64,000 nt of DNA from an uncultured Acidobacteriota bacterium (GTDB taxonomy: Bacteria; Acidobacteriota; Vicinamibacteria; Vicinamibacterales; 2-12-FULL-66-21). The stretch lies in assembly GCA_963786195.1 (NCBI GenBank), contig CAWAYH010000009.1, forward strand, positions 457,011 to 521,010. The letters are read 5' to 3'. Positions 1-64,000 of this stretch are shown here, one piece after another; the first letter of the stretch is position 1, and each line of letters begins with the position of its first letter. The notes under the pieces were generated by a model. The model saw nothing but the letters and a program-made list of their open reading frames with translations, searched no databases and was not told where the DNA came from. Position numbers and translations under genes: made by a program.

Positions 1-529
1 TCGGCCGGCGTCGGTGTCGCAATCGGCGAGCGCCACGTCAGAGATGGTCACGCTGGCCGTGAGGCCGTTGACCTCCACCTGGCCCTGGAGGTGATGACGA
101 ACCGCCGGATTGGGTTCGAACGCGTATACATGACCGCGCTCGCCCACGCGGAGCGCGGCCAGGACCGTGAAGTACCCGGTGTTCGCGCCGACGTCCACGA
201 AGATCCCGCCCGGCTCGAGCGCGTCGAGTACGACCCGCGTGGCCCCCGGCTCGTACGGCACATGTGCGAAGTACTGCCCCTTGACGGTGAAGTCGCTGAC
301 ATCGAACAGGGCGGACACGGGCCCGACCTGAATCCGGCGATGCGCCCGCCCGTCGCTGACCAGGCGTCGCGCCAGACGATCGGTCGCCTCGCGGAACACG
401 GTGTTGAGACCAGGCACGCCCCAGAACGCCGCGGCACACCGCGGAGTACGGCCGCTCCATCGCCGGCGCGTGATAGAGCGCCGTCGCGATCACGGCGGAC
501 GCGGCGTCGCGCGCGGTCCTGACCAGCAT
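1..529 (-). CDS. FkbM-family SAM-dependent methyltransferase; C-terminus runs off the window start; internal frameshift near nt ~430
   Basis: Minus-strand translation gives the N-terminus MLVRTARDAASAVIATALYHAPAMERPYSAV, then in a second frame ...GIFVDVGANTGYFTVLAALRVGERGHVYAFEPNPAVRHHLQGQVEVNG. VDVGANxG and YAFEP are FkbM hallmarks. The start codon lies directly after the upstream GT2 stop at 530. Confidence 0.55.
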
Positions 530-1396
530 TTACTCCTTACGTCCCGCTCGCGCCACGATGCGCCAGCCGGTGTTGGCCCAGCCCGTGAGCGAGGCGCGGC
601 GCATCCATGTCCGGCGCGGGCGCGCGTGATCCCGCGCGATGACACGTCCCACCGCGAGTGAAACAGCCGGCCGTTCGCGAGCACGCGTCCTATACGCCGC
701 GCACAGCTCGCCGATCGTGGTGCTGCCGAGATGATCGTAACCGCCGAGCCGCTCGTAGCCGCACGTCGCGACCTTCCAGCCCGCTTCTCGGATGCGGAAC
801 GCCAGGTCCGCTTCGTCCCACTCGGTCGGCACGGAACGCCTCGTCGAGCGAGCCGACGCGATCGAGGCATGCGCGGCGCACGATCCACGGCCGGATCACG
901 GCGTCCACTTCCTGGAGGCGGAACCAGTTGCCCGGTGCCGGACCGATCGTGCTCTGCAGCCGCCGCCAGTCGATCAGATCCTCCCAGCGTCGATCGGCTC
1001 GTCGAGCGGAAGGCAGTTGAGGCCGCGGCTCAGGCTCAGGAGCCCGATGTCCGGGCAGCGTGGAACGTGTCCAGCAGCTCGGGCACCAGCCAGGCGGCGC
1101 GCAGGAACATGTCGTCCTGCCAGGCCATCAGCAGCGGCGCGCGCGCCGCGTCAAGCCCGCGTTCGTGCACCGCAGCTCGTGCGCGTCGTCCTGGTGCATC
1201 CATCGCAGATGGCGCCGGCCCCAGGCGGTCTCGCTTTCGCTCTCGAGAAATGCGCGGTTCCGTCGCGGCAGCCGTCCTCGACGACGATGATCTCGAGTTG
1301 CTGGACGCGGCGGAACCCGCCAGCCGCGAGGCACGCCGCAGCACGGCTTCAGTTGTTGAAGGTCGGCATGACGACGCTGAGCGCCGGGACCGTCAT
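530..1396 (-). CDS. Family 2 glycosyltransferase (GT2), interrupted by several frameshifts; pseudogene or sequence error
   Basis: Pieces in three frames: MTVPALSVVMPTFNN (GT2 N-terminal motif), AVLRRA.., LEIIVVEDGCRD (DxD-region motif), and C-terminal WDEADLAFRIREAGWKVATCGYERLGGYDHLGS. The ATG overlaps the stop of the upstream methyltransferase (ATGA at 1393-1396). Confidence 0.55.
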
Positions 1397-2282
1397 GCGC
1401 GGCCAGCGTTGCGCGCGTAGGCCTGCAGGTTGAACGCGAGCGGAGTATGGACGCCGCCCGGCACGGCGAGCGCGAGGCGGAACACCGCGAGCCGCAGCCA
1501 GTCGATCCCGCGGTGCCGGACGGCAGCTCCGGCGCGGCGACCTCCAACGCGATCTCGTCGAACCCGGCGCGCTCGAGCGCCCGGCGGAGCGCGCCGGCGA
1601 AAAGTGACTGACGTGGACGAGGTTGTCGGCCAGCGTCGCGCGATAGCCGCGCTGCAGACGCGCGCCACGTTTCCTTCACGTCTGCGCCGGCCCGCACGGC
1701 ACCTTGACGGCGATCCACCCGCCGTCGCGAGCGCCGCGCGCACATTCGAGAGGACGGTACCGGCTCCGGCACGTGCTCGAGGACATCGGTCAGCGTGACG
1801 GCGTCGAACCGGCGGCCGAGATCGGGGATCTGTCCGCGTTGATCTGGTGGACGCGCGCGCCGGTGCGACCCGCCGCGTAGGCGGCCGTCTGCGGGTTGAG
1901 CTCGAGGCCTTCGCCTCCCACCCGGCGTCAGCCGCGAGCCGGAGAAACCGCCCGGCGTGCGCGCCGACGTCGAGCAGCGCGTCGCCCGGGAGACACGCGC
2001 CGGCCGAGCGCGTCGAGGATGCGGCGAAAGATCAGATCCTTGTAGGTGGCTTCGTACTCGCCGCGCGATCCAGTCGTCCGACCATCGCTGGTCGTACATG
2101 CGATCGAAGTACCGCGGCAGCGCCGGAAGCGACCGGCTGGGCGAACCCGCATCGACGCAGCGCTCGAGCGAGACGGGCTCCCCGGAGTAGGCGGCCAGCT
2201 CGGGATCCTGCTGCCTTCCACTGGAGAAGTCGAGCACGGCCTCGTGGAACCGGATCCGGACGAACCGCCGCACACCCAGCAC
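1393..2282 (-). CDS. Class I SAM-dependent methyltransferase, frameshifted
   Basis: N-terminal region in the 1128..2282 ORF (RFVRIRFHEAVLDF...). Motif I LPGDALLDVGAHAGRFLRLAADAG is in a second frame. FDAVTLTDVLEHVPEPV and LFAGALRRALERAGFDEIALEV are in further frames. The shift at ~1985 is a 1-nt indel in a cccggg run. Confidence 0.5.
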
Positions 2283-2319
2283 GCGCCCGTCGCATCGAAC
2301 AACGGCCGCTCGTCTCCCA

Positions 2320-3493
2320 CTACGCCGCCCCGCTGGCGATCGCGACGATCTCGCGCGCCATGTCGTCCCACGTGCGCGCGCGCAGCCGCGACGCGAACGG
2401 CAGCACCCGTTCGCGCATCGTCATGTCCGTGCGCCACTGGCGAAGCCTGGCGATCAGCTCCGTCACGCTCTCGGGATCGGTGAGCAGGAGCTGACGAAGA
2501 TCTTCGGGATATCGCTCGGCGACGCCGGCCGTCGCCGACACGATCGCCGGCAGTCCGCGACACAGCGCCTCGTGAACGGCCAGCCCGTAGGCTTCGTAGC
2601 GCGCGGGATGGACCAGGACGTCACCCGCGGCGAGCAGCGCGGGGACGTCCCGGCGAAATCCGAGGAACTGCATGCGACCGGCCGGCAGGTGCTCGACCGC
2701 CCGCGCGCGCCACGACGTCAACTCGCGCGCCGGTGCCCGCCACCAGCGAGATCGACATCCCAGTCCGGCTCGCGACACAGCGCTCGCCACGCCTCGAACA
2801 GCGTGTCGAATCCCTTGCGCCGATCGCCGAGCGCGCCGACGAAGAGCGCCAGCGGACGATCGGGTCGCACGCCAAGGGCGCGGCGGGCCGACTCGCGCTC
2901 CGCCGGATCGATGGGCCCGAATCGCTGGGGATCGGTGCCGTAGTAGACGACGCTCGTGCGATCGCGCGGGACTTCGGTCAGCTGCACGACCGCGTCGGCC
3001 GTTCGATTGCTGTTGCAGATGATCGCCCGGGCGTGCTGCAGCGCCGTTCGCTCCTGGGCGAGGTACCGACGATGACTGGACGCCACGCGTATGCGATTCC
3101 ACACGCCGGCCGCCTCGGGACGGAACGCCGAATGCACGTAGTGCACCCAGTTGAGGTCGCCGGCGTCCGCGTTGCCGCCGTTGGCGATCGTCCGGACGCC
3201 GCGCGACGAGAGACGCTGCTGCCAGCGGCGCGCGCTCAAGCGGAGGATCGGCTCGCCGAGCCGCTCGGCGCCGAGCGGCCTGGGCGCCGTGTGCACGCGC
3301 ACGGTCGAGAGAGCGGCCAGCTCCGGAGACACGTGATGACTGACGAGATGCACTTCGCTGCCGTTGCGAACGTCACCCTCGCCTCCAGAGCCGCCTGGGG
3401 CCGCGCAAGATAGTTCGCCAGCGCGAAGTTGGCCATGTCCATGCCGCCGTGCGGCGCGAAGTCACCCGCAATGAGGAGCCAGCAGGCGCTCAT
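2320..3493 (-). CDS. GT4-family (GT-B fold) glycosyltransferase, frameshifted
   Basis: Start MSACWLLIAGDFAPHGGMDMANFALANYLA (GT4-type N-terminus). Middle piece: ..HLVSHHVSPELAALSTVRVHTAPRPLG...LALFVGALGDRRKGFDTLFEAW. C-terminal piece: FLGFRRDVPALLAAGDVLVHPARYEAYGLAVHEALCRGLPAIVSATAG. The three pieces lie in different frames. Confidence 0.6.
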
Positions 3494-3495
3494 CG

Positions 3496-4851
3496 TGCTG
3501 GTGCGTTGCGCGTCCGCATCGCGGTCCGCGCGAGCGGGGTCGCGATGCCGTGCAGCGCGCCCGCCAGGAACCAGAACTGCAAGCCGATCTGCGTGACGAA
3601 CGGTGTGAAGCTGAAGATCAGCGCCGCGGTGCCCGAGGTTCACGGCCACCACGACGCCGGCGCACGCCCGGACCTTGGCGTCCGGATCGTAGAGCGCAGT
3701 GCGCAACTCGGACGTCAGCGTGACGACGATCGCGCCGACGTACAGGATGAGCAGCGGGATGCCGCCGTCGATCGTCCAGCCCGCGACTTGAATCTCGGCC
3801 CACAGCGGCGCGGAATCAGGCGTCGAGCCGCCGCCGAAGTACCCGCTGACCATCCCCCATCGTCCGAGACCCGCGCCGAGCGGATAGGAGTACAGCAGCT
3901 CGCCGAAGGTGTACTCGAGCTGACCGCCGCGTGACTCCGAGTACAGGCTCACCGGGTTCTGCCCGAACAACGTGAACGTGCGTTCCGCAATGCTCTCGCC
4001 GCCGAGTCCGATCGCAAACGAAAACGTCGCCACGAGAATCACCCCGGCCACGCCGCCGAACAGGATGGCGCGCTGACGCCGGTTCTGGATGATCAGCATC
4101 ACGACGTAGACGGCGAGCATCACCGCGAGAACGACCAGCGAGACGCGAACCTGACTCAGATAGATGGCGGCGACGCCGGCGAACGACGCCGCGATCGCAG
4201 CCGGCGCGTCTCCAGAGCGCGATCGCGCTGATCGCGAAGACGAGGCCGAGCAGCGCGGCGTACATGCCGGGTCCGGCGACGGCGCCGGGATTGTCGAAGA
4301 GGCCGGGTGGACGGATGATCAGGCCGTTCGGTCCCATGTACGAGACGGCGCCGAGCCCGTAGCTCCGACTCGGTCACGAGTCGCGACATCTGGTGCGGCA
4401 TCCACCTGGCGGGGTCGTAGACCTGCAGGACACCGACAACCGAGTTGACGCCGTTGCAGACGAGGAGCAGCGCGACGAGCCGAGCCAGATGATCGGGGCC
4501 GTGGACAACAGACGAGGCCCAGAAGAGTGGCGCCGCGACGGAGAGGTAGAGCACGAGCTGCGCGAGGCCCGCGAACGTGGAATTGCTGAAGGGGTGGACG
4601 ATCATCGCGGCGATGTAGATCAGCGTCGCGACCAGCCAGGGTTGCGCCGGATGTTTTGCGCTGATCTTGGCGTGTCCGAATCCCCACCAGAGGAGGAGCG
4701 CGAGCGAGATCCCGAACGACGCGACGCGGATGTAGAGGCGAAGCGGCTGGGTGCCCGGGAGATACAACAGCGCAGGGATTGCGGTCTGGCTGATCACGAA
4801 GAACTCGGCCAGGCCCCATGGCGTTCGAGATCGCTCAACCGCCGCGCTCAC
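3496..4851 (-). CDS. O-antigen ligase / Wzy-like polymerase family integral membrane protein, frameshifted
   Basis: Multi-TM N-terminus MSAAVERSRTPWGLAEFFVISQTAIPALLYLPG...; later pieces MGPNGLIIRPPGLFDNPGAVAGPGMYAALLGLVF and DSAPLWAEIQVAGWTIDGGIPLLILYVGAIV. The last resembles the O-antigen-ligase H-N-x-Y-L..E.G..G signature. Pieces are spread over three ORF-track frames. Confidence 0.45.
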
Positions 4852-6101
4852 GCCTTTTTGTCCCCAATCAGGCTGGCGCCCGCGCGCGCGGCTGCACCGT
4901 CCGCTGTCAACCCCTCGTACACCGACACGACCTCGGAGGCGAGACGGTCGGGATCGAACAGTCGGCAGGCGGCAACGCGCGCCTGAGTTCCCAGGCGCTG
5001 CCGCAAGCCGACGTCAGCAGAAAGTCGTGCGATGCCGGCCGACAGCGACTCGACGTCGCCCGACCGGTACGTCAGCGCGTCGCTCTCCGGCTCGACGAGC
5101 TCCGCGGCGCCGCCGGTCGCCGGCGTCATCACCGCACGGCCGCAGGCCATGGCCTCGGCAATGACGAGCCCGAACGGCTCAGGCTGCGTGCTCGCGTGCA
5201 CCACGATGTCGAGCGCCCGCAGGGCACGCGCGGCCGGCAGGAAGCCCGTGAAGCCGACGCGCTTGTGAACGCCGAGCGTCCGCGCAAGCCCGCGCAGCTC
5301 TCCTTCCGTGTACTCGCTGCCCTCCGTCGCGTATTGCGGTCCACCAATGATGTAGCCGCGAATCTCACCACGATCGCCAAGCGCCGCCATGGCGCGCAGG
5401 AACAGCTCGTGGCCCTTCCACCTGGCAAAGGTCGCGACGAGACCCACTCGAACGGTCGACGGAGTCGCCGGACCGAGCCCCGCCCGGACGTCGAGGTTCT
5501 CGGCGGGGCCGTCGGGAGCGAACGTGCTGAGGTCGACCGCGTTATGGATCACGTGCATCGGGACGGTCGGCGTGAGCGCGGTCGCGGCGTCATCCGCGAC
5601 GCTCGCCGAGTTCGCAAGGATCGAGGCGACACGCGGCTGAGAGAATCTCAGGAGCGCGCGTGAAATTCTGCGAGGGCTGAGGTATTCGTGCAGATGCCAG
5701 ACGACTTTCACTTCGGGCCCGACGCGGGCGCCCAGCACATGCGCCTTGATCCCGTTGGTGTGGAGGATCGCGGGCCGGCTCGCTCGAACGGCCCGCCGCA
5801 GGCGGCGAAGGTAGGACGGCAGCGCCGCCGCGACGGGTACCAGCCGCGCGCCCATCCTCACGCCGGACACGAGCCCGCCCGGAGCAGTCGATTCGCCGAG
5901 CCGCGTCAGCGACTCCGGAAACGGAACGACGACGCAATCCGCGCCCGCCGCTTCCGCGCGCGCCAGCAGCGGCCCGCGCCCCGGCAGAATCACCTGAAGC
6001 GTCCACGACGATCGGAGACGACGCACGCCCTCGATCATGCTGATGAGCGCGGTCTCCGAGCCGCCGAGGCCGTCCGACACGCTGTAGTACGAGATACGCA
6101 T
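4848..6101 (-). CDS. GT4-family glycosyltransferase (intact, 417 aa)
   Basis: Uninterrupted ORF. MRISYYSVSDGLGGSETALISM... and C-terminal ...FGLVIAEAMACGRAVMTPATGGAAELV are the GT-B / GT4 E-x7-E region. Confidence 0.8.
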   Translation of the reverse strand: MRISYYSVSDGLGGSETALISMIEGVRRLRSSWTLQVILPGRGPLLARAEAAGADCVVVPFPESLTRLGESTAPGGLVSGVRMGARLVPVAAALPSYLRRLRRAVRASRPAILHTNGIKAHVLGARVGPEVKVVWHLHEYLSPRRISRALLRFSQPRVASILANSASVADDAATALTPTVPMHVIHNAVDLSTFAPDGPAENLDVRAGLGPATPSTVRVGLVATFARWKGHELFLRAMAALGDRGEIRGYIIGGPQYATEGSEYTEGELRGLARTLGVHKRVGFTGFLPAARALRALDIVVHASTQPEPFGLVIAEAMACGRAVMTPATGGAAELVEPESDALTYRSGDVESLSAGIARLSADVGLRQRLGTQARVAACRLFDPDRLASEVVSVYEGLTADGAAARAGASLIGDKKA

Positions 6102-6115
6102 TCAGGCCGGAATGC

Positions 6116-7042
6116 TCAGGCGGGAATGCGCTCGCCCGGCGCCGTCCACAGGAAGTGCGGCCAGGCGTCCAGCGTCACGGCTCCCGGATCGATCGGTGCG
6201 AGCATGTCAGCCGGACGGATCGAGCCTGAGGCAGCTCGCCGGTGCATGGACAGCGAATGATCGATGTGCCATCCCTCATAGCCTGCGTCCCTCAACGGTG
6301 CCAGGCACTGGTCGAGGCTCATCCGGGCATCGGTCCACCCCGGCGCGCCCGGATGACACTCGGCTAGCACGAACCGATACCGTTGCCGGTCGAGACCAGC
6401 CGCCATGCCCCGAAGCACGTCCGGTTCGGCGCCCTCGACGTCAATCTTCACGAGATCGACGCGGTCGATGCCGCGCGCATCGATCAACTCATCGAGCGCG
6501 ATCACCTCACACTCGAAGTCGGGCCGCTCCGACCGATCGGCCACTCGCGAGACACCCCAGTTCCCGCCGTGCTCGTCAAATGCGATGAACGACGTCAATC
6601 CGCGCGTCGCGCCCGCACCCAGCCTGAGACACTCGACCTGGCGCAGCCCGTTTCTCGCGACGTTGTCAGCCAGCAGTGTGCACAGCCGCGGATGCGGCTC
6701 GAGCGAGACGACGCGCCCCCGCTCGCCAACGAGGTGCGCGCACACCAGAGAGAAGTAGCCCCAGTTCGCCCCCACGTCCACGGTCGTCTGACCGGGGCGC
6801 AGCAGCCGCCGGATCAGTTCCGTCTCCTGTGGTTCGTAGCGGCCCGTGAAGCAGACCTCGCGCGAGATCGTGTCGCCGAGATCGCACACGAACTCGGCTG
6901 CGCCGAGATCGACCGGCATTCGGGCGAGGAAGGGACGCCGGCTGAACCGACCCAACGTGTCCGACAGGCGGTAGCGGCCGAACGGCAGCCGCCGGATCGC
7001 GGAGGCGGACAGCGTCACCCACAGCGGCGCGGTCTCAACCAT
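6116..7042 (-). CDS. FkbM-family methyltransferase
   Basis: ...QTTVDVGANWGYFSLVCAHLVGERGRVVSLEPHP...IDRVDLVKIDVEGAEPDVL, which are FkbM motifs. The likely start MVETAPLW overlaps the end of the upstream methyltransferase gene. The first ~75 residues of the ORF-track entry are read-through of the neighbour. Confidence 0.7.
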   Translation of the reverse strand: MVETAPLWVTLSASAIRRLPFGRYRLSDTLGRFSRRPFLARMPVDLGAAEFVCDLGDTISREVCFTGRYEPQETELIRRLLRPGQTTVDVGANWGYFSLVCAHLVGERGRVVSLEPHPRLCTLLADNVARNGLRQVECLRLGAGATRGLTSFIAFDEHGGNWGVSRVADRSERPDFECEVIALDELIDARGIDRVDLVKIDVEGAEPDVLRGMAAGLDRQRYRFVLAECHPGAPGWTDARMSLDQCLAPLRDAGYEGWHIDHSLSMHRRAASGSIRPADMLAPIDPGAVTLDAWPHFLWTAPGERIPA

Positions 7043-7697
7043 CCTTGCGTGCGAGGAGCATGACGTTGTCCGACAACGCCTGCGGGAACATCTGCGACAG
7101 CGCCGCCGGGTAGTGCTGGGCCGTCCGCGGTATTCGACCCGAGCACGTGAACGCGAGCTGGGCATTCGACAGATCGCACTCTTTCGCGATTCGGACGAGA
7201 TCGATTGGCAGAAGCGCGGTCCGATGGACCGGGTAGTACGCGTCCTGAAAGGCAACGAAACGTCCACGGACGATCAGGCAGAGCACGCTCAGCAGGCTGA
7301 GCTGGTTGGGCGTCGTGACGACAAGCCAGCCGCCAGGCCTGAGCACGCGCGCCAGCTCCCGGCAGAACGTGCGCGGATTCTCGAGGTGTTCGATCGTCTC
7401 GATCGCCACGACGATGTCCGCCGAGCGATCCGGTACCGGCAGCGGCTCCCGATCGAGATCCGCGCGCAGGAACGTGACGTCCGGCGGAAGACGCGGGTGG
7501 CGGACGACGTCCACGCCGGTATAGCCGGAGGCCAGGTCCCGCGTGAACTCGCGGAAACGGCCGATGCCGCAGCCGACGTCGAGGAGGCTGCCGGCCGCCT
7601 GAGAGCTCCGCAGGATCCCCGCAGCGGCTCGATAAATCGGCTCGTCGCTTTCGCCGTAGCTGCGCAGGCCCCGCTCGACAGCGGCGTCCGTCGTCAT
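7035..7697 (-). CDS. Class I SAM-dependent methyltransferase (intact, 220 aa)
   Basis: LLDVGCGIGRF (motif I), ..ADIVVAIETIEHLENP.. (motif II/III), LRPGGWLVVTTPN (post-II). Confidence 0.75.
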   Translation of the reverse strand: MTTDAAVERGLRSYGESDEPIYRAAAGILRSSQAAGSLLDVGCGIGRFREFTRDLASGYTGVDVVRHPRLPPDVTFLRADLDREPLPVPDRSADIVVAIETIEHLENPRTFCRELARVLRPGGWLVVTTPNQLSLLSVLCLIVRGRFVAFQDAYYPVHRTALLPIDLVRIAKECDLSNAQLAFTCSGRIPRTAQHYPAALSQMFPQALSDNVMLLARKDG

Positions 7698-8818: not shown

Positions 8819-8859
8819 GTCAATTTGCGGACGTACTGCGAATCGCCCAGAGACCTGCC

Positions 8860-9696: not shown

Positions 9697-9699
9697 GAA

Positions 9700-11879: not shown

Positions 11880-11894
11880 ACGGGGCGACGCACC

Positions 11895-11923
11895 ATCCTC
11901 GCAGGATCGGCCGGGTGTGTCAA
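11895..11923 (-). promoter_or_regulatory. Possible sigma-70-like promoter (TTGACA-17-GAGGAT) for the regulator/OM-protein/exporter operon
   Basis: Minus-strand TTGACA at 11918-11923, 17-nt spacer, GAGGAT at 11895-11900. The -10 element is weak. Confidence 0.2.
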
Positions 11924-11958
11924 TAAGGATACATGGGATGTTGCATCGGCGATACAGC

Positions 11959-44602: not shown

Positions 44603-44608
44603 CGGGCG

Positions 44609-50523: not shown

Positions 50524-50678
50524 GGTCGCGCGCCGCTTTGCCGGCGCGCTTCCGCCTACGCTAAAGCTCCGGCGAGACCTCGCCGAAGCGCCTACGACGC
50601 GAAGGCGGGCCGGTCGCGTGGCTCGCTCGCCATGCTCGCTCGCTCCTTGCAACGAGCGTCAGGTTTATGAGACAGCTG

Positions 50679-55106: not shown

Positions 55107-56821
55107 GAAAGTTCTCGTTCGGGGGACGCGCCGGACGGAACACGCAGCACGCCTTCCCACCCGCTTTCCCGATGCAGCGACACCGGCTTGACGTCGCCCA
55201 GCCGCTGACCCTTCGCGACGCACGCGTCCACGTACGCGCGATCGGCGTCAGGACCGACGGACACGACGCGCGCCGGGCGAAGCTGACCGAGGTCGACGCA
55301 CCACGAGTAGTGCGGGTTGCGCCGGAGCTCGCGCTCCAGCGACGTCGCAAGGCCTGGGGGCAGCGCCCCGTCGGGCTCCGGAGGCTCAACGAGCAGCGTG
55401 TACGAGGTCGCGCCGCCGGAGGATTCGGGCGCAAGCATCGCAAACCTCGGCGCAGCCCAACCCTCGAACAGCCTGGCAAGCACGCCGGCCACGAATCCAT
55501 CGCTCAGCTTCTCGCCAAAGCGATCCGACACGCGGTCGGCCCGGCCGACGAACCGTAGCGATGGCGTGGCATCGATCCAGCCGTTCACGCGCACGTTGTC
55601 CCCCAACCGATAGCGATACAGGCCGCCGCCGGTCGTCACCACAACGGAGTAATCGACGTCGCGCTCCAGCTCGTGCGCGAGGAGCGCCTGGCCCGCGGGG
55701 TCGAGGAACTCGAAGAAGTGCGATCGGATCGCAAGCGGATGGAGGCCGCCAAAGGGAATCGACACGATCGCTTCGGTTGCGATCAGGCCCTTGGGCTGGA
55801 CTGGAACACCCTTCAGCTCGTGCGTCAGCTTCTGCGCGTAGGATTGTGCCGGACCGTCTCCCCAACAGCTCACGAGACCGAGGTCAGGCCACAAGTTCTC
55901 GGGACGAAGATCATCAATCTGCCGCAGGGCCGCCGCGCGACGCGCATCGGGCGTCAGCCGGCGCAGGAGTCGACCGCGCACGTCGCTCGAGATGGATCCC
56001 GGCGGCGTGAGCGAGCCGCGCTCGACGTCCGCAATCAGGCGATCGCGCCACGCCGGCAGCCCGTCGATCAGCCTGGAAAGAAACGACGGATGCCAGACCG
56101 AAATCAGCCGCAGCGCGCGTGCTCGGATCAGGAACAACAGCGTGACGTAGTGGAACGCATCGGGATCGGTGACGAAACGGATGTCATCCGGCACCGCCAC
56201 GACCGCACGGATCAGCGCGCGGCGCGCGGCGCCCAGGTACGCCGAGTCGTCTTCGAACCCAACCGGGACCACGTGATCGCTGCCAAGCCGCGCGGAGGCA
56301 AGCGTGTCGGCCGAGAGCGCCGGGGTGATCGACCAGTACGCGGGCCCGCCAGCCAGGCTCGGCCTGCTGCGGAACAGATCGACGACCCAGGCGTCGATGG
56401 CCCGGCTGAATTCGCGCTGCAGCCCGATCGTGCTCGGCAGCAGCTTCGCCGCCGCAGTCGAGCCGCTGGACGGCGCGAGGCGTCTGACGGTCTCCTGCGT
56501 CATCACGCCCGGCTCGCCCCGGGCAACCCGTCGAACGAGCGGCTCGAGATCGTCGTACGTCGCGATCGGCACCTGATCCCGATAGCGTTCGACGACGTCC
56601 TGCCAGGTTGCGCGCCCCGCGTCCGCCAGCTGCAGCGTTTTCACGATTCGTGAAAACCGGCACGCGCGACCGACGACCGTCTCGCCGTTGTTCTGCAGGT
56701 ACGCAGCCAGGACGTCGAGCTGCGCACGCGCCGGGTCGCGCAGCGCCACACGGAACCGCTGCCACGCTCGCGCGCTTGCTCCCGCCCAGAGCAGATTCAC
56801 CGCACTGCAGCGAACATCCAC
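55100..56821 (-). CDS. GH3 (auxin-responsive promoter) family acyl-acid amido synthetase homolog, intact 573 aa
   Basis: Adenylate-forming-fold signature ..YSVVVTTGGGLYRYRLGDNVRV.. characteristic of GH3/JAR1 family. ..SSGSTAAAKLLPST.. is the P-loop-like region. Confidence 0.7.
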   Translation of the reverse strand: MDVRCSAVNLLWAGASARAWQRFRVALRDPARAQLDVLAAYLQNNGETVVGRACRFSRIVKTLQLADAGRATWQDVVERYRDQVPIATYDDLEPLVRRVARGEPGVMTQETVRRLAPSSGSTAAAKLLPSTIGLQREFSRAIDAWVVDLFRSRPSLAGGPAYWSITPALSADTLASARLGSDHVVPVGFEDDSAYLGAARRALIRAVVAVPDDIRFVTDPDAFHYVTLLFLIRARALRLISVWHPSFLSRLIDGLPAWRDRLIADVERGSLTPPGSISSDVRGRLLRRLTPDARRAAALRQIDDLRPENLWPDLGLVSCWGDGPAQSYAQKLTHELKGVPVQPKGLIATEAIVSIPFGGLHPLAIRSHFFEFLDPAGQALLAHELERDVDYSVVVTTGGGLYRYRLGDNVRVNGWIDATPSLRFVGRADRVSDRFGEKLSDGFVAGVLARLFEGWAAPRFAMLAPESSGGATSYTLLVEPPEPDGALPPGLATSLERELRRNPHYSWCVDLGQLRPARVVSVGPDADRAYVDACVAKGQRLGDVKPVSLHRESGWEGVLRVPSGASPERELSC

Positions 56822-56826
56822 GATCG

Positions 56827-57555
56827 TCAGCCCTTCAGGCTCCTCGCAATCCGCGTCCCCGCCCGGGTCAGGTTGTCTTCGTGAACGCGCGTCAGGCAGA
56901 CGAGCTCGTCGCCGTGGATGTACCCGGGATTGCGCTCGAGAAAGAACGTGACGTGGGCGTCATGAGTGCGCCCGAGGGGTACGTCGAGCAGCTCCGGCAC
57001 GAGTACCTGAGGTCGATCGAACCGCACGATCCCGCGCTCCGAATCGTAGAGATCCCCGAACCGCTCGCGAGCCAGGGTGTCGAGCAGCGAGCCCGCAACG
57101 CCGTCCGAGTCGTAGCGGGGATGGAACTCGCGGAAGAACACGGGCAGAAAGCGGTACGTTCGAAACCCCGACGTCAGCAGAAGCCAATACAGGTCGCCGC
57201 CGTCCGGGCCGGCGAGCTGTTTGACGGCCCGCAGCCATGTCAGCGGAAGCGCCGAGCTTCCCCACCAGCGCGGATCGACGATAGTGTCGCCGGAATAGAC
57301 GATGGTCGCGTCGACGTTCGTCGCCTGGCTGCGATAAACCTGCAGCGTCGAGAAACCATGAACCGATCCGGAATCGTCTTCGAGGAGGATCACCCGGTTC
57401 TTCCCCGCGAGATCCGACTCGAACGTGTCTCGATCGACGCCCGTGAAGGACGTCGACAACAAGGCGAACATCGCGTCACGGTCGCCGTCCCCGAGCGACG
57501 TGCGCTCGACGATGCGGCCGGCAAGTCGTGTCGGTGCAGAGGTGATTGGGGTCAT
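56827..57555 (-). CDS. GNAT-fold acyltransferase-like protein
   Basis: Real start MTPITSAPTRLAGRIVERTSLGDGDRDAMFALL.. (ATG overlaps the stop of the upstream gene, ATGA at 57552-57555). Fold assignment is tentative. Confidence 0.45.
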   Translation of the reverse strand: MTPITSAPTRLAGRIVERTSLGDGDRDAMFALLSTSFTGVDRDTFESDLAGKNRVILLEDDSGSVHGFSTLQVYRSQATNVDATIVYSGDTIVDPRWWGSSALPLTWLRAVKQLAGPDGGDLYWLLLTSGFRTYRFLPVFFREFHPRYDSDGVAGSLLDTLARERFGDLYDSERGIVRFDRPQVLVPELLDVPLGRTHDAHVTFFLERNPGYIHGDELVCLTRVHEDNLTRAGTRIARSLKG

Positions 57556-58865
57556 AGGATTGCCAACTCCGGCTGTGACGGTCGGGGATCGACCGATCGG
57601 GCCAGTGCTTCGCCGTCCGGCCAGAACGCGAGGTACACGACGCTCTCGTAGGCCCGGTGTCGAAAGCGCCGGCGGATCCCGCGCAGCAGCGTGCTCCGCT
57701 CCGAGAGTCCAAGTGCCACGTAGTCGAGCCCGTCCAGCCGTGCGCGCGCGCACGCGTCGGCCACCAGCGCTCCCAGCACGTCCTCATCGTCGTCGTCCAC
57801 GGCGACGTGCGACAGGTAAGCAAACGCGAGCGAGGTGCCGACCGCGGGCAGCGTTGGAATTCCGGTCCAGGGGGCCGCGAGATTGATCACGTGCCGCCAG
57901 TGCGCGAGCCGGCGGCAGTAGCCGCGGACGACGACCTGCTTGAACGCTCGTTGATCCCAACGGGCGAGGCAGCCGACGATGCGCCCCTGTCGCGTCGCGA
58001 CGAGGAAGTCGTCCATGCTCAACCCTCGCGTTCGGAGCGTCGAGAGCAGGTCGTGTGCGGTCCAGCGTGGATGCAGCTGATAGCGTCGGCCGTTCCGGTG
58101 CAGGCACTCGACGATTGCATCGATGGCCGTCAGCGAACCTCGTTGAATGCGAACGTCACCCGGCGTGGCGGGCCGCCGCGGGGCGCGAGCCGGAATCGCC
58201 AGCGTGACGAGCCGATCGAGCGGCTCGAAGCGGGGCCATCCGGGCGAACCGCGCGTCAGCAGCCGCGCGGCGCCGGCGTTGTCTGCCACGATCGAGGCCA
58301 GATACATGCGCGCATCGCCGGCGAGGTGCAGCTGGCGGCAGAAGTGGAAGCCCGCATCCATCAGGCCGCGACGGCTTCGGAAGGCGGGATCGATGCGAAG
58401 CTGGCCGAGGTAGCCGAGCCGGTCCGGCTTTCCGTTGATGAACGCGTCGCGCACGCTGCGGCTGGCAACGGCGGCGAGCTTCCCGGTGGCGCGCTGGCGG
58501 GCGACGATCAACTGGTGCACGTCTCCTTCGATGGAGGCGGCAGCGAGGCTGTCCGGCTCGCGCTCGAGCGAGAGGCTGACGTCACCGGGGAACGCTGTCT
58601 CACGCAGCAGCGTGCGTATCGCGGAATCGTCGTCCCGCGAGGCGAGCTCGAGGGTGTACGACGCCGACCAGCGACGCGCGGCCGCGCGCGCCCGCTCGTC
58701 GCGGTCGGGAACGACCGGCAGAGGCGCCGTCAGTGCGCGCGCAGCAGCGAGCCCGTTCCACGATTCGTCTCCCAGCGGAAAACCGTCGCGCCGCTTCGTG
58801 TCGACCCGCAGCATGCTGTTGATCGGGAAGAAGTTGCGAAACATGAACGCGTCCGCGCGATTCAC
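57552..58865 (-). CDS. CelD/FemAB-like (tandem GNAT) acyltransferase, intact 437 aa
   Basis: Two GNAT-like halves. Family assignment from overall architecture only. Confidence 0.45.
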   Translation of the reverse strand: MNRADAFMFRNFFPINSMLRVDTKRRDGFPLGDESWNGLAAARALTAPLPVVPDRDERARAAARRWSASYTLELASRDDDSAIRTLLRETAFPGDVSLSLEREPDSLAAASIEGDVHQLIVARQRATGKLAAVASRSVRDAFINGKPDRLGYLGQLRIDPAFRSRRGLMDAGFHFCRQLHLAGDARMYLASIVADNAGAARLLTRGSPGWPRFEPLDRLVTLAIPARAPRRPATPGDVRIQRGSLTAIDAIVECLHRNGRRYQLHPRWTAHDLLSTLRTRGLSMDDFLVATRQGRIVGCLARWDQRAFKQVVVRGYCRRLAHWRHVINLAAPWTGIPTLPAVGTSLAFAYLSHVAVDDDDEDVLGALVADACARARLDGLDYVALGLSERSTLLRGIRRRFRHRAYESVVYLAFWPDGEALARSVDPRPSQPELAIL

Positions 58866-60102
58866 CTCATCGAACCCCCGGCGGACGATGCTCGACCAGC
58901 CGTAGAAAGAGCGGCGGGCTCGCAGGCAGTGACTGCTGGAGCTCCTCGGGACTCATCGGGGACGGCGGAACGGCACCATGTTGTAGCGGTACGCGCTCGT
59001 CGAGCCACCACGCGTTCGTAACAGCAGCCGGCTTGTCGGACTTCGAGGCGCGTGTACAAGGGCGTACCGGGAAACGGCGTCAGGTGATTGAACGCGGCGA
59101 TGTAGAAGCTGTGCGCCTTGGCGAATTCCGTCGCGTGCGCGAAGCTCTCGGCCGTGTCGGCGTCGTAGCCAAAGATGAACGTCGCGTAGAGCCGGAGCCG
59201 GTGTCGCCGCAGGTTGGCGAGCGCCGCCTCGTAGCCGCCGCGCATCGTGTTGAAGCTCTTGTTCATCGCCGGCGAGGGCGACCGGGTTGAGGCTCTCGAA
59301 GCCGATCAGCACGCCCTGGCAGCCGCTGCTGCGCGAGCAGATCGAGGAACTCTTCGTCGTGCGCGGCGTTGATGCTCGACTGGCTGACCCAGCGGATGCC
59401 GAGCGGACGCGAGCGCGCGGAAGAACTCCTTCGCCTCCGCCAGGTTCGACGTGATGTTGTCGTCGACGAAGAAGAACAGCTTCTTGCTGTCGCGTGATCG
59501 AGCGCGACCTCGGCGATGACCTCATCGAGCGGCCGACGCGTCTGGGTGTTGCGCGAACATCGATCTGCACGGCGCAGAACTCGCAGCGGAAGTGACAGCC
59601 GCGCCCGGCCTCGACGAGACCGATCGGCAGATAGCGCTTGCCGCGAAAGATCCGGCGGTCCGGCCGCAAGCCGCGCAGCGAGGGCCGCCGTTCGGCGCGA
59701 TAGAACGGCTCCAGCTGCCGTGACGGAAGTCGTCGATCGAGCCGCGGCCAGATCTCCTCCGCCTCGCCGATGACGACCGCTTCGGCGTACCGCGAGACCT
59801 CGTCGGGGCAGAGCGTCGCGTGAAAGCCGCCCATGACGACCGGCATGCCGCGGCGCGCGATACTCGCTGGCGATCTGATACGGCGCGCCGCGCCGTGTAG
59901 GTCTCGACGCTGATGGCCACGAGGTCCGTCGGCTCGTCGAACGGAATCTGTCTCCATCCGATCGTCGTAGAACCGGATCGTCGACATCTGATGGCGTCAG
60001 TCCGGCGATCGTGGCCGGCGGCAGCGGCTCCATCTCCCAGGAGCGGATGTAGCGCTGCCCCGCGCGGCGGCCGATGCACGGATGAATGAGCGTGAGCCTC
60101 AT
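58862..60102 (-). CDS. B12-binding radical SAM protein, paralog 1; at least 10 frame switches
   Basis: MRLTLIHPCIGRR...; ..DLVAISVETYTARRA / YQIASEYR / GMPVVMGGFHATLCPDEV (B12-binding domain); KRYLPIGLVEAGRGCHFRCEFCAVQ (CxxxCxxC); ..TRRPLDEVIAEV..; LGIRWVSQSSINAAHDEEFLDLLAQ; SGCQGVLIGFESLNP; C-terminal NKSFNTMRGGYEAALANLRRHRLRLYATFIFGYDADTAESF...TPFPGTPLYTRL. Pieces alternate among all three frames. Confidence 0.6.
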
Positions 60103-60136
60103 CGCGTGCCGCCATCGCGACGACCGGTCGCGGACG

Positions 60137-61490
60137 TCAGCGCCGGCCCGCCCGGCCCGATGATCCAGTCGCAGTTGTAGAACCGGTGCAGGTTGTGGGC
60201 GTAATGCCGGTAGCCGAGGTTCGTGCCGAGATGGCAACCCACGGCGATGCCGGGACGGCGCGAAGCCGTCGCGCGATCGACGGCAGCGAATACACGTAGC
60301 GCCACGCCTCCTCCGTGCCCTCGCTGCAGCTGCTGCGACGCTCATGCGCAGCCGGCTCGAACACGACGTGCTGACCGTCGTAGAGCTCCCAGTTTCTCGT
60401 CAGGATCCGTCCCTCGCGCTCGAGGCGCTGATAGAGCGCGCGTGCCCGGGAACGGCGTGACGATCGGCGAATCGCGGCAGATCGATGCGCGCGTCCACGG
60501 CGAATCGCGCGGTCTCGAGGAACACATCCGGCGTGTCGTGATCCATGCCGAACACGAAGCAGCCATAGACCGCGATGCCGTGCGCGTGCAGCAACGCGAC
60601 GACTGTCCTTGAACCTCGATCCGGCTGGTTGAAGCTCTTGCTCGAGCCGCGCAGGTTGTCCGCACGGATCGATTCGAATCCCATGAGCAGACCGCGGCAG
60701 CCGCTCCGCGCCGCGAGCTTCAGCAGCGGCAGATCGTCTGCCAGCAGCACCGTCGAGAGGCCGTACCACTGGACCTTCAAGCGGAATCAGCGCTTCGAAC
60801 AGCCGCTCGGCGTACTGCGCGTCGGCGATGAGGTTCAGGTCGACGAAGATCAGCTTGCGCGCGCCGTGCTGACGCGGATGTCCGCGACGACGTCTTCGCA
60901 CGGGCTTCTGGAACGGCTTGCGTCCCCAGGCGGCGGGCACGACGCAGAACTCGCAGTTGTGGATGCAGCGCGCGCGTCGCTTCGAACACGTTGTTGGTCA
61001 GGAAATCGCGCGCTCCGGCAGCAGGTCGCGGCGCGGGAACGGACGTCCGGCCAGCGAGAGATCCGGCGCCTGCGCGTAGCGCGGCCGCATGCCGGTCCCC
61101 GCGACGAAGTCCCGCAGCAGCTCGCGGCCACGTGTCTTCGGCGTAGCCGACGACGATCGGCGTCCGCGTGCGGCTGCGCGTCGTCAGGGACGAGCGTGAC
61201 GTGAGGACCGCCGAGCACGACGGTGATACCGCGCGCGCGGAACGGCCGCGGACAGCTCGTAGGCGCGCGGCGCCGTGCCCGTGATGACGGTGATGCCGAC
61301 GAGATCGACCTGCAGTCTGCGGATCGACGTCTTCGATGCCTTCGTCGATGAGCGTGCAGATCGGCGTCGAGCTCCGGCGGGCACGAGCGACGCAAGCGTC
61401 GTCAGCGTGAGCGGTGCGTAGCGAAGCGATCGGCGGAAGATGCCGCCGCGATGACGATAGAGCGGTCCCTTTGGCGAGAATCAGCGCAAT
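60137..61490 (-). CDS. B12-binding radical SAM protein, paralog 2; heavily frameshifted
   Basis: ..GITVVLGGPHVTLVPDDAQPHADA.. (B12 domain); ..TNNVFEATRGCIHNCEFC.. reconstructed across a frame switch; ..RQHGARKLIFVDLNLIADAQYAERLFEALIPL..; ..WYGLSTVLLADDLPLLKLAARSGCRGLLMGFESI..; C-terminal ..IAVYGCFVFGMDHDTPDVF...LYQRLEREGRILTRNWELYDGQHVVFEP. Same domain order as paralog 1. Confidence 0.55.
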
Positions 61491-61679
61491 TTTCACGAGA
61501 AGCCACCCCCGATGGAATGAAGCTACGTGGCGAGCGTGCCGTGACCGTGAGCGGCAGGCTGAAAAAAGGCTGAGAAAGGGTGATCCCCGGGGTGTTTGTC
61601 AACCTGCTGGGGAGAGCAGGTTACGAAAGACGCGGCCGGGAACGGCGAGTTGGCCATCCGTCCCGGCACGGCTTTGGGA

Positions 61680-61860
61680 GGAGAGGCTGACACTTAGGAC
61701 AACGACGGCTCGGCGGCGAGCGAAAGTCCCGCTGACGGTAATGCGGAGGGTTGCCCGGTAGTCGACGGTTGGGAGGGCCGGAAGTGGACGGACACGGGCC
61801 ACTCCTCCGAGAAATCGTCAGGCCGTCGTGACCTGCTGCGGGACCTCACGACGTGCAGTT
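61680..61860 (+). ncRNA. Candidate cobalamin (B12) riboswitch aptamer
   Basis: Ordered matches to the B12-element core, shown as ours ~ E. coli btuB leader. ACUUAGGACAAC ~ AAUAGGGAA. GGCGGCGAGCGAAAGUCC ~ GGUGCGAAUCC. CCCGCUGACGGUAAUGCGG ~ CGCAGCGGUAAGG. GGACACGGGCCACUC ~ GGACACUGCCAUUC. GAGAAAUCGUCAGG ~ GGGAAGUCAUCAUC. GACCUGCUGC ~ GACCUGCCGG (B12-box end). P1 candidates GGCUGAC (61685-61691) / GUCAGGCC (61819-61826). Sits in a ~700-bp gap with no credible ORF on either strand. The reverse complement shows none of these elements. Confidence 0.4.
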
Positions 61861-62191
61861 CGTAGTACTGACGCGTGCCGCGGTCGGGAACGACCTCGAT
61901 CACGACCACGGCGTCGGCCCGATGCAGAGGGCCGTCGCAGATAGCGACGTCAGGACCGTGTCAAAGCGAACGCTGAGCGAGGCAGCGCGCACCGTCGTGG
62001 TCTGCCGGGTGCGAGGACAATCGCAGGTCCACAGGCGTCGCTGCGGGGTTCCCCCACTCGCCGCCATCGCGATCCCAGACCGAGGAAAGGGACCAAGGCG
62101 CATCGCCGAACTCCCAAACGGCCTCAGTCCCACGTTCGAGAGTCTCCGTGTTTAGGGGGTTGGCACCTTTTCGGCAGGTGGGAGTTCACGT

Positions 62192-64000
62192 CTACTCGTC
62201 TCGCAGCGCCACCATCGGATCCAGACGCGCGGCGCGGAGGGCGGGGACGCCGCAGGCGACGAGCGGCGATGACGAGGAAGCACGGCAGCCATCGACGACG
62301 AAGGTGCGGGATCGGTCGGCTCGACACCGACGAGCATGGTTCGCATGACGCCCGTCAGCGCGAACGCGGCGAGCAGACCGCCGCCGCAATGCCCGCGGCG
62401 CTCAGCCAGAGGCCCTGCCCGACCATCATGCGGAAGATGCGCCGGTGCTCGGCGCCGAACGCCATGCGCACGCCGATCTCCGCGTGTCCGCTGCCGCACC
62501 GACGGTCGACAGCACGCTGTAGAGACCGACAGCCGCGAGCACCAGCGCGATGGCGGCGAAAATCGCGATCAGGACGAGCGCGAACTTCGTCTGCGCCTGC
62601 GCGCGCCCGATGAACGTCGTCATCGGCTGGACTTCGATGACGCCGGCGCGCGGGTTCAGCTCGGCCACGGCCGCCTTGACCGGTCGATGCGAGTCGCGAG
62701 CGGATCGCCGCTCGTCCGCACTGCCCAGCGATTGGCCGCGCCGAAGCCCCATGTACGCATCGGGGACGAAGATCGCTTCGCGACCGTCACGCGCGAGCGA
62801 TCGCGTGCCGCTGATGGTCGACGACGCCGATGACCTGGAAACGCTCCGGCTCCGGCGTGCGCAGGCGCGCGAGGAGGGTACGGCCGACGGCCGACTGTCC
62901 GGGGAAGGCCTTCGACGCGAGCACGCGATCGATGACGATCGACCGCGACGTCGGGCGTTGTCGGCGTCCGTGAACGTCCGCCCTTCGATCGACCCGTCGT
63001 TCGCATGGCTTCGAAGTAACCAGGCAGGACGGAGTGCGCCGTCGCCTGCTGAAACTTCGACGGATCCGCTCAGCGCCTCTTCGGTCCCCCATCGCGCGAG
63101 GCCCTCGCGCGCCTCGAGCGGGAAGGGGCTCGCCGCGGTCACCGCCTGCACGCCCGGCATGCCGCGAGCCGCGGCGGAGATCGCGCACGAACGCCTGACG
63201 CGCCTGTCGGATCCGGCAGTCGCAGATTCGGGATCAGGAACGTCAGGACGCCGTTGGGATCGTAGCCGGGCTGCGCGCGCTGCAGCGCGATGAAGCTGCG
63301 GATCATCAGTCCAGAACCGACGAGCAGCACGAACGACAGCGCGACCTCCGCCACGACGACCGGTTGCGCAACCAGTTGCCTGACGACAGCCCGCTCGTGC
63401 GCCCGGCGCGCCTGAGCAGATCCATGACGTCGGGACGCGATGCGCGCAGCGCCGGAACCAGCCCGAAGACGATCGCCGACACGACGGCCGGCAGCCGCGG
63501 CAAACGTCAGCACGCGCGGATCGATCGCCACGCGCTCGAGGCGCGGCAGATTCGCCGGCCCGAGCGCCAGTCAGCAGCCGGATCCCGAGCCATGCCAGCC
63601 CGATGCCGGCAATTGCCGCGAGCCCCGACAAGCACCAGGCTCTCGGCGAGCATCTGCCGCACGAGACGCGCACGGCTGCTGCCGAGCGCGGCGCGAACCG
63701 CCAGCTCGCGCTCGCGCGACGCCGCACGCACGAGCAGCAGGTTCGCCACGTTCGCGCACGCGATCAGCAGCACGAACGACACGGCACCCATGAGCGCGAG
63801 GATCGCCGGTCGTACGTCGGCGACGAGATCCGTGTGCATCGGCTCGATGCGGAAGTACACGCCCGCGGTCTGCTTGATGGGGAATTGCGATCGCAGATCC
63901 GCGGCAAGCGCGTCGACGTCTGCTGCTGCGCCTCGCCCGACCGCGACACGCCGTCCTTCAGGCGGCCGATGACGCGCAGGAACACGTTGATGCGGGAGCC
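62192..64000 (-). CDS. ADOP-family FtsX permease, 3' portion (N-terminus beyond window end); multiple frameshifts
   Basis: ..[58 protein letters not shown] (FtsX); ..[33 protein letters not shown] (MacB periplasmic domain); ..[28 protein letters not shown]..; ends ..[14 protein letters not shown]. Pieces sit in three frames. Confidence 0.6.

Follow-up and report, generated by a model that had tools for sequence, protein, structure and literature searches.

Frameshift-rich gene blocks of a soil Vicinamibacterales contig probably reflect consensus errors of two kinds

The frameshifts that disrupt blocks of genes in a 64-kb stretch of soil metagenome DNA (the window, i.e. the whole stretch analysed) are, as judged from sequence comparison, very probably consensus errors of a long metagenome-assembled contig, produced in two regimes, rather than mutations carried by the organism itself. 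The indels occur in the window only, being absent in DNA alignments from up to four independent sister contigs and from more distant relatives, and they carry a signature of base composition and codon position that is described below. Such errors would most likely have arisen from read pile-ups of mixed populations in combination with poorly polished stretches.

The window is part of a 594,322-bp soil Vicinamibacterales (Acidobacteriota) metagenome contig (NCBI/ENA). The comparison set comprised a sister population that is ~93-95% identical and is represented by Illumina-assembled contigs from several JGI metagenomes, with up to four JGI sister contigs per region at 89-95% nucleotide identity, together with the gene tables of a 25.5-kb and a 16.1-kb contig. 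This sister population was assembled independently in at least six JGI samples, and its genes are uninterrupted, such as those encoding E1 (826 aa), MacB (818 aa), PMT_2 (508 aa) and sigma54 (451 aa), and likewise the genes of 250, 452, 390, 292 and 513 aa. The frdABCD genes are uninterrupted in two relatives that are ~81% identical.

When the coding frame was traced along the window by a codon-usage Viterbi HMM, with switches coinciding with stop codons left out of the shift counts, 77 frame shifts were found over the 20.4 kb of the four blocks that the sequence-only reading had marked as frameshifted, at essentially the boundaries it had given, as compared to seven in the remaining 43.6 kb. 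This corresponds to ~1 shift per 265 nt within the blocks, which is a lower bound, and ~1 per 6.2 kb elsewhere. In 1-4360, 17287-19350, 22463-30890 and 59037-64000 the frame switches on one strand every 50-500 nt, and outside the four blocks the HMM segments represent whole genes. Clean and error-rich blocks alternate at a scale of 2-12 kb, and the shifts, when counted in 2-kb bins, have an index of dispersion of 3.6 (p = 5e-11), in agreement with the earlier assertion that this is not uniform sequencing error. The blocks regarded as intact were upheld insofar as their HMM segments are whole genes, except that the one at 49,581-58,865 hides a +1 shift near 53740. Frame-merged translations recover full-length Pfam domains across the junctions (FAD_binding_2 at 1-414/414 and Glyco_hydro_44 at 2-222/223) as well as E1_dh, Transket_pyr and Transketolase_C, full-length domains being thereby restored for frdABCD, E1 dehydrogenase, GH44 and MacB/FtsX.

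Table 1. Blocks, genes and fusion ORFs of the window, with strand and basis of assignment
Positions	Strand	Feature	Basis
1..2300	-	Block 1, left part: raw-like error zone; glycosyltransferase and methyltransferase genes	Sister alignment; 1-1128 HMM only
2301..4362	-	Block 1, right part: genes for 390-aa glycosyltransferase and 452-aa membrane protein, with sparse single insertions of G/C	L022/L023 alignment
4363..16877	-	Clean block: exopolysaccharide-type gene cluster and ABC transporter	Sister alignment and HMM
15771-17213		Artefactual fusion ORF (480 aa): E1 C-terminus and next gene (glycosyltransferase)	
16878..16891	.	Block 2 edge: ~107 nt of E1-to-glycosyltransferase spacer missing	Sister/relative comparison
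16892..19372	-	Block 2: ~23 indels; spans exactly the gene for the fused E1 alpha/beta 2-oxoacid dehydrogenase	Sister alignment
19373..22400	-	Clean block: thioredoxin and 807-aa MacB-like permease	Sister alignment
22463..30890	.	Block 3	HMM, Pfam, relatives' DNA
	-	Block 3: 250-aa membrane protein gene	
	+	Block 3: 818-aa MacB-like permease gene	
25839-29158	+	Block 3: frdABCD	
29268-30890	-	Block 3: GH44 gene	
30891..58950	.	Mostly clean zone: seven isolated insertions, all +1	Sister contigs, HMM, Pfam
52522..54051	-	Artefactual fusion ORF (509 aa): 198-aa DUF4440/SnoaL gene and 311-aa desaturase	Sister gene lengths, HMM
59037..64000	-	Block 4: B12-binding/radical-SAM-like genes and MacB/FtsX permease, mixed-sign shifts	HMM, Pfam, tblastn

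Alignment of the E1 gene (16946-19346) with up to four sister contigs revealed 20 one-nt insertions, one two-nt insertion and two deletions (insertion:deletion ratio 21:2), the insertions being seen identically against L001 and L002, and an open frame of 816 codons is obtained once the insertions are removed. The distance of E1 to its sister is 10.8% as compared to 4-8% for the flanking genes, with 67% of the differences located at codon position 3, where 81 changes are AT>GC and eight are GC>AT; for block 2 overall these numbers are 117:35. GC3 of E1 amounts to 0.93 in the window and 0.84 in the sister, whereas the flanking genes are equal between both. Identity to three outgroups is 0.79-0.81 for the window E1, 0.76-0.78 for the sister E1 and 0.74-0.76 among the outgroups themselves, and outgroup support is split 145:71, 143:85 and 156:72 in E1 but 45:32, 26:23 and 55:43 in intact genes, a relative-rate asymmetry of ~2:1 in E1 and ~1:1 in the flanking genes. 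On these comparisons the window E1 looks averaged, lying closer to the centre than any of its real relatives, and block 2 is probably not the real allele of any organism but an average of several. This averaged signature applies to E1 only, frd having been compared with the relatives that are ~81% identical. The higher divergence, but not the indels, could alternatively come from a natural recombinant E1 allele. Sister contig L058 contains 20 + 87 extra nt at the edge of block 2, and the spacer between E1 and the glycosyltransferase gene measures ~14 nt in the window and 112-149 nt in all relatives. The 480-aa fusion product falls in a 33-member protein cluster with both E1 fragments and glycosyltransferases. 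Beyond the other end of block 2, the clean block exhibits no coding indel against sister contigs L058-L061, and its proteins cluster with the JGI sister at an identity of at least 90%.

Block 3 contains 33 frame shifts according to the HMM, and its frd genes, compared with the relatives L019 and L057, harbor 33 one-nt and five two-nt private insertions with only three deletions (38:3). In the GH44 gene, comparison with sister contig L063 places one deletion at 30302 and two insertions, at 30465 and 30691. The lesions in blocks 2 and 3 are almost all private one-nt insertions. The high GC3 of frd (0.90-0.99) could be partly natural, as for a highly expressed gene. Relaxed selection was sought in E1 and FrdA and none was seen, since the corrected E1 has one mismatch at 370 conserved columns (homologue median 2) and the corrected FrdA one at 341 (homologue median 1).

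In the left part of block 1 deletions dominate, as 12 one-nt, three two-nt and one three-nt deletions are present over 1149-2256 against sister contigs L022 and L023, with two insertions. The deleted bases occupy codon positions 1, 2 and 3 in five, four and four cases, and surplus substitutions occur at all codon positions, with a mismatch of 11% over 1129-2300 versus the 6% baseline, 64 AT>GC against 28 GC>AT changes, and a GC content over 1129-2628 of 0.713 in the window and 0.686 in the sister. An extra G previously proposed at ~1985 was not found; the window lacks an 'AT' at 1979/1980 that both sister contigs have, and the gcccggg run near 1985 is the product of a T>C change in the window relative to both. 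The consequence for the frame at this site is the same as that of an extra G. Against the same contigs, the right part of block 1 has insertions at 2726, 2748, 3632, 4203 and 4362 as well as a single deletion at 3393, every insertion adjoining codon position 3 and the mismatch of 6.1% equalling the baseline, and the sister versions of its genes are intact. Error density in block 1 is graded from dense to sparse to none with no sharp switch. In the adjoining clean block, no frame-disrupting indel was found over 4401-8547 against L022, and no gaps over 13289-16880 against sister contig L062 at 94% identity.

The isolated +1 sites of the mostly clean zone lie at 33747, ~35095, 42264, ~46450, 48621, 49050 and ~53740, some of them placed against sister contigs and ~35095, ~46450 and ~53740 by the HMM. 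Single shifts had been ascribed to four genes from sequence alone, and each was recovered: Sigma54_activat is split into 3-104 and 108-168 at ~33740 (gene 33,089-34,448), MacB_PCD is separated from FtsX at ~35095 by Pfam (34,485-36,996), a one-nt insertion is located at 42264 (41,719-42,865), and an HMM shift at ~46450 (46,038-47,565) falls where the sister has its intact 508-aa PMT_2 gene, the fragments flanking this site giving weak Pfam matches only. The gene at 47586-49477, with insertions at both 48621 and 49050, was missing from that list. The hidden +1 shift corresponds to a frame change near 53735-53740 within the 509-aa ORF, at whose place the sister has separate 198-aa and 311-aa genes; the fused product is recorded in a public protein collection. 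Block 4 has 24 frame shifts of both signs (HMM), gives only weak B12-binding, Radical_SAM and FtsX matches after frame merging (Pfam), and its tblastn matches to permease homologues change frame. Read from the HMM, Pfam and tblastn, it is the least documented block.

Statistics of the signature were taken over 62 located one-nt insertions. The inserted base is G or C in 54 (87%, p = 4e-4) and makes a 5'-GC-3' dinucleotide with the base beside it in 37 (p = 2e-6), and 50 out of 54 adjoin codon position 3 (p = 7e-6), an association possibly inflated by aligner gap placement. By inspection, no common motif beyond the GC dinucleotide bias was evident at the inspected insertion contexts, and no programmed frameshift site shared with orthologues was found in L001, L002, L019, L057 and L058. 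Classical homopolymer-length error, whether of nanopore, 454 or Ion Torrent, was rejected, as run lengths of 1, 2 and 3, the inserted base being counted, were found in 47, 11 and 4 insertions and never of 4 or more. Homopolymer deletions are the classical consensus error of nanopore data (PMC8486125, PMC9262707), and this is not the pattern of blocks 2 and 3.

Blocks 2 and 3 would belong to regime (a), as would, at lower density, the isolated sites and the right part of block 1. Here the building or polishing of the consensus probably drew on a pile-up in which reads of this population were mixed with those of related Vicinamibacterales. Wherever a wobble position varies, the majority base (G or C) would be taken, giving an averaged, GC3-inflated sequence, and in places both alleles would be emitted, with the addition of one base, often as a GC dinucleotide beside codon position 3. 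It is proposed that the protein stays perfect because all reads agree at conserved residues. Coincidence of block 2 with one highly conserved gene, E1, counts for such a mixed pile-up. Block 3 includes less conserved genes (GH44 and the 250-aa protein), for which cross-mapping is less obviously expected. Regime (b), to which the left part of block 1 is assigned and block 4 probably belongs, would represent near-unpolished long-read quality, every codon position being subject to deletions and substitutions, and the clean blocks would reflect a deep, homogeneous pile-up. In long-read assemblies of soil metagenomes of this order, coverage-dependent indels are reported to persist through polishing with Racon, Medaka and Pilon (PMC8692599, PMC9262707). 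Uneven polishing or coverage, a strain mixture or low-quality long reads had been suggested earlier, and the private indels support this group of causes; we infer the choice among them, as we do the read-mixing mechanism and the responsible sequencing platform or polisher.

Genuine pseudogene blocks, i.e. recent inactivation of several operons in the lineage, are a very improbable reading that is already close to refuted. The frameshifts are present in the deposited sequence, and garbled ORFs are found in public protein collections; however, ~23 frameshifts in E1 coexist with a single mismatch at conserved columns and no stop after removal of insertions, the sister population at 93% identity has all of the genes uninterrupted, and the targets include frdABCD and the E1 dehydrogenase. 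An accumulation of stop codons and nonsynonymous changes and an AT- or deletion-biased spectrum were looked for as marks of pseudogenes and not found. The bacterial mutation spectrum is AT-biased and deletion-biased, and the G/C insertions and AT>GC changes seen here run opposite to it, which, with the lack of substitution damage, bears out the earlier view that this is not genuine decay. That the extra bases are real and are bypassed, in certain operons only, by dense +1 recoding or by deletional RNA editing has a negligible likelihood: E1 and fumarate reductase are otherwise perfectly conserved and there is a mild preference for a GC dinucleotide beside the wobble position, yet the insertion contexts that were inspected showed no slippery or stimulatory motif in common, no orthologue has the insertion sites, only some operons are affected with adjoining genes clean, and deletions and substitutions elsewhere are not repairable by such a mechanism.

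Among technical causes, plain low coverage or unpolished long-read stretches in the absence of population mixing, with shifted blocks where short-read or long-read polishing failed and clean ones where it worked, is possible although doubtful. The left part of block 1 fits it, with deletions at all codon positions and surplus substitutions at positions 1 and 2, as do the shifts of both signs in block 4, and truncation of ORFs as a function of coverage has been documented in assemblies of this type (PMC8692599). However, random read errors would hurt conserved residues, and E1 and FrdA are without such damage; low coverage also gives no reason for the concentration of insertions at wobble positions, would not render E1 more central than its sister, and would not be expected to yield a near insertion-only pattern (E1 21:2, frd 38:3). 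A hybrid scaffold, in which accurate short-read contigs (clean) are joined by lightly corrected long-read gap fills (shifted), is unlikely: the 2-12 kb alternation and the ~107 nt missing exactly at the block 2 edge agree with it, but the grading of errors in block 1, lone single insertions within long clean stretches and again the lack of random damage in E1 and FrdA do not.

As the frameshifts are very probably assembly or polishing errors, the affected genes are to be read as intact, and there is no new biology in the frameshift blocks. Regions 1-4362, 16892-19372, 22463-30890 and 59037-64000 should hence be annotated from frame-corrected translations, and their genes, including frdABCD, E1 dehydrogenase, GH44, MacB-type permeases and glycosyltransferases, treated as functional. 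Clean-looking ORFs may mislead, as do the two fusions of 509 and 480 aa, and public protein collections already contain garbled products, as singletons. The averaged sequence of block 2 matters for phylogeny and ANI besides gene calling.

The window resembles the 'IDEEL-type' truncation of ORFs in long-read (nanopore or PacBio) assemblies, in which one-nt indels split ORFs of an uncultured soil bacterium that are intact in independent short-read assemblies of its lineage, as described for a soil rich in Vicinamibacterales after assembly by Flye, Racon, Medaka and Pilon (PMC8692599) and more generally (PMC9262707). It differs in that 47 of the 62 indels lie outside homopolymers, the affected blocks are kilobase-sized and not contig-wide, and blocks 2 and 3 are nearly insertion-only, at wobble positions. 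Block 2 also resembles a collapsed or chimeric strain consensus, being central, with the majority G/C at variable sites and conserved sites unchanged. No description of single-base insertions at polymorphic wobble sites as a by-product of collapsed consensus was found in the literature, and it is we who infer this link. Mycobacterium leprae has a pseudogene-rich genome under reductive evolution, and with genomes of this type the window shares many recognisable genes broken by frameshifts. Unlike them, it is free of stop codons, of an excess of amino acid changes, of AT or deletion bias and of sharing with relatives, and it accumulates many lesions in a single gene with the neighbours untouched.

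In four stretches (1-4360, 17287-19350, 22463-30890 and 59037-64000; blocks 1 to 4), a seven-state codon-usage HMM trained on long ORFs changes frame at intervals of 50-500 nt while staying on one strand; outside them, its path matches whole genes. With switches at stop codons set aside, the HMM counts 77 shifts in the 20.4 kb of the blocks versus 7 in the remaining 43.6 kb, with strong clustering (dispersion index 3.6, p = 5e-11). Joining the frames yields full-length Pfam matches over many junctions, such as FAD_binding_2 (1-414/414) and Glyco_hydro_44 (2-222/223), and also restores the domains Succ_DH_flav_C, Fer2_3, Fumarate_red_C and D, E1_dh, Transket_pyr, Transketolase_C and MacB_PCD/FtsX. 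Thus, the alternation of frameshifted blocks with clean stretches, as put forward by a sequence-only reading, is real and far from chance, and the single shifts which that reading assigned to a few genes agree with split domains or with alignments to a related population. Its extra G near position 1985 turns out to be the absence of 'AT' at 1979/1980 together with a T>C change, and the stretch 49,581-58,865 was wrongly considered intact, as ORF 52522-54051 is a fusion of genes of 198 aa and 311 aa, brought about by a concealed +1 shift near 53740. Gene 47586-49477 carries two insertions.

The G+C content of the window is 66-71%, and tRNA and Rfam scans of the window gave no match. The closest relatives of the 858-aa aminopeptidase N and of other genes are found in Vicinamibacterales (Acidobacteriota) soil MAGs. 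Exact look-ups revealed that the window ORFs, including the garbled ones, are present in the public protein collection and all derive from a single 594,322-bp NCBI/ENA contig. A genome-contig search gave no match above 62% aa identity, and a single scan of metagenome contigs gave only relatives at 38% or less or short partial matches. A sister population with 89-95% DNA identity is present in several JGI metagenomes (contigs L017, L018, L022-L026 and L058-L064), whose 25.5-kb and 16.1-kb contigs were compared by gene tables. All genes with shifts in the window are single intact ORFs in this population, and the farther syntenic relatives L001, L002, L019 and L057 are likewise intact, except for one private insertion in L002 (MFD05442 MAG). 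This 1-nt insertion lies in its own E1 gene, equivalent to window position 18088, and leaves two ORFs, of 909 aa and 403 aa, that differ in frame; since L002 is itself a MAG, the same type of error is present in another public MAG. The Rieske and DUF3014 genes lie only about 200 nt apart in L024 and in the 16.1-kb contig of the sister population; the segment of about 1 kb between them in the window is absent from both and is probably a strain-specific insertion. The length difference in the spacer between the PMT_2 and VWFA-related genes is probably natural variation.

Lesions and other features of the window, with strand in brackets
Feature	Position	Description	Compared with
E1 gene (fused alpha/beta 2-oxoacid dehydrogenase; block 2)	16892-19372	20 one-nt and one two-nt insertions, two deletions, within 16946-19346	four sister contigs
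frdABCD (block 3)		33 one-nt and 5 two-nt private insertions, 3 deletions; lower bound, automatic insertion removal having left one mis-framed stretch	two relatives
GH44 (block 3)		two insertions and one deletion in 710 nt	sister alignment
Isolated insertions	33747, 42264, 48621, 49050		sister alignments
Isolated +1 sites	~35095, 46450, 53740		HMM only
Block 1, left	1149-2256	12 one-nt, 3 two-nt and 1 three-nt deletions; 2 insertions	
Block 1, right	2726-4362	5 insertions, 1 deletion	
E1-glycosyltransferase spacer	16878-16891	~14 nt, versus 112-149 nt	all relatives
PMT_2 to VWFA-related gene spacer	47566-47582	lacks 19 + 8 nt	three sister contigs
Rieske-DUF3014 segment	50436-51434	ORF 50679-51533 (-), roughly 263-284 aa	
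480-aa ORF	15771-17213 (-)	E1 C-terminus in shifted frame, fused to glycosyltransferase	
304-aa ORF	23272-24186 (+)	garbled	
473-aa ORF	26894-28315 (+)	garbled	
317-aa ORF	29600-30553 (-)	garbled	
MacB_PCD/FtsX-type permease genes	19961-22384 (-), 23287-25650 (+), 34470-36957 (+), 62195-64000 (-)	four paralogues	

The E1 insertions are identical in comparison with L001 and L002, and the genes flanking E1 (thioredoxin, permease and glycosyltransferase) contain no such indels relative to the sister contigs. The 62 located insertions comprise 27 G, 27 C, 6 T and 2 A, hence 87% G/C versus 68% expected (p = 4e-4); 47 of them lie outside any homopolymer run and none in runs of four or more. A 5'-GC-3' is created with the neighbouring base by 37 of the 62 (background 30%, p = 2e-6), and 50 of 54 adjoin a third codon position, where two thirds would be expected (p = 7e-6). 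Homopolymer-length errors were discarded as a source because the insertions avoid such runs, and a coding-strand preference for inserted C, hinted at by the first alignments, disappeared in the full catalogue with its equal numbers of G and C. Upon removal of the insertions, E1 becomes an open frame of 816 codons with a mismatch at only one of 370 columns with a conservation of 97% or more, as compared to the consensus of 120 homologues (homologue median 2), and FrdA has a mismatch at one of 341 conserved columns (homologue median 1). Such sparing of conserved positions fits neither random read errors nor decay. Random substitution errors were similarly dismissed for blocks 2 and 3, where conserved residues are intact and the differences fall mainly at wobble positions.

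The frameshifts are very probably consensus errors rather than a biological feature; with conserved positions spared, genuine pseudogenes are highly improbable, and recoding is so improbable as to be negligible. For blocks 2 and 3 as well as for the scattered insertions, we lean, judging from the E1 sequence, towards a pile-up of mixed populations during consensus or polishing as the most probable cause. All reads would agree at conserved positions, the majority G/C would prevail at wobble positions, and at some sites both alleles would be emitted, leaving one extra base. E1 differs from its counterpart in sister contig L058 at 10.8% of sites versus 3.9-7.9% for the flanking genes; codon position 3 holds 67% of these differences, and AT>GC changes there outnumber GC>AT by 81 to 8. 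The GC3 of E1 is 0.93 in the window and 0.84 in the sister, while flanking genes are equal. E1 of the window is 0.79-0.81 identical to three mutually distant outgroups, as compared to 0.76-0.78 for the sister and 0.74-0.76 between outgroups. Where window and sister differ in E1, an outgroup supports the window about 2:1 (145:71, 143:85 and 156:72), whereas the same test in three intact genes gives about 1:1 (45:32, 26:23 and 55:43). A majority-rule consensus drawn from several related populations would be expected to be, like this E1, more central than any real relative and enriched in majority wobble alleles, and by these comparisons the E1 block appears to be more than a correct sequence with added insertions. 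Block 2 coincides in extent with this single highly conserved gene. GC3 reaches 0.91 in block 2 and 0.90 in block 3 against 0.83-0.85 elsewhere, without a rise in blocks 1 and 4. Illumina GC-bias dropout was rejected as the reason for the higher GC of the blocks, since GC in the corresponding sister sequence is normal and the excess hence belongs to the erroneous consensus itself. Cross-mapping of reads between the MacB/FtsX paralogues is possible; two of the four genes adjoin sigma-54 activator genes, and related loci also occur in many copies.

Although plain low coverage without any mixing of populations accounts well for the left part of block 1, it is a less likely cause, since neither the intact state of conserved residues nor the bias towards wobble sites nor the centrality of E1 follows from it. 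The lesion make-up of block 1 is unlike that of other blocks: in its left part, mismatch to the sister reaches 11% and is raised at every codon position, each AT>GC class is increased two- to three-fold, G+C is 0.713 versus 0.686 in the sister, and deletions are spread evenly among codon positions. This part looks like a poorly polished long-read consensus, and block 4, whose shifts are of both signs, may belong to the same regime. A hybrid gap-fill scaffold would match the alternation of blocks and the deletion at a block edge, where about 107 nt of the E1-glycosyltransferase spacer are absent exactly at the edge of block 2, an indication that the assembly was joined or switched path at this point; the hybrid explanation is nevertheless improbable, being at odds with the graded error density and the isolated insertions.

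Frames need to be corrected ahead of any functional inference, even some uninterrupted ORFs are unreliable, and the sequence of block 2 is unfit for use as a real allele. The 480-aa artefact ORF is deposited in the public protein collection. It falls into a cluster of 33 members at 90% identity, in which fragments of the E1 beta subunit stand alongside glycosyltransferases, and it may be a false link between families that are unrelated. The 304-, 473- and 317-aa mixed-frame products of the same 594-kb contig, each in a singleton cluster, are spurious 'orphan' proteins.

Residual coverage-dependent indels that fragment ORFs are well known from long-read metagenomes of soil and sludge, among them an Antarctic soil rich in Vicinamibacterales whose assembly used Flye, Racon, Medaka and Pilon (PMC8692599), and are treated more generally in PMC9262707. 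In the literature consulted on such assembly errors, we found no description of insertions at wobble sites as a by-product. The window shares with these metagenomes the outcome of fragmented ORFs. However, nanopore errors have been characterised as mostly deletions in homopolymers (PMC8486125), while those in the window are insertions that come in blocks, at wobble sites and away from homopolymers.
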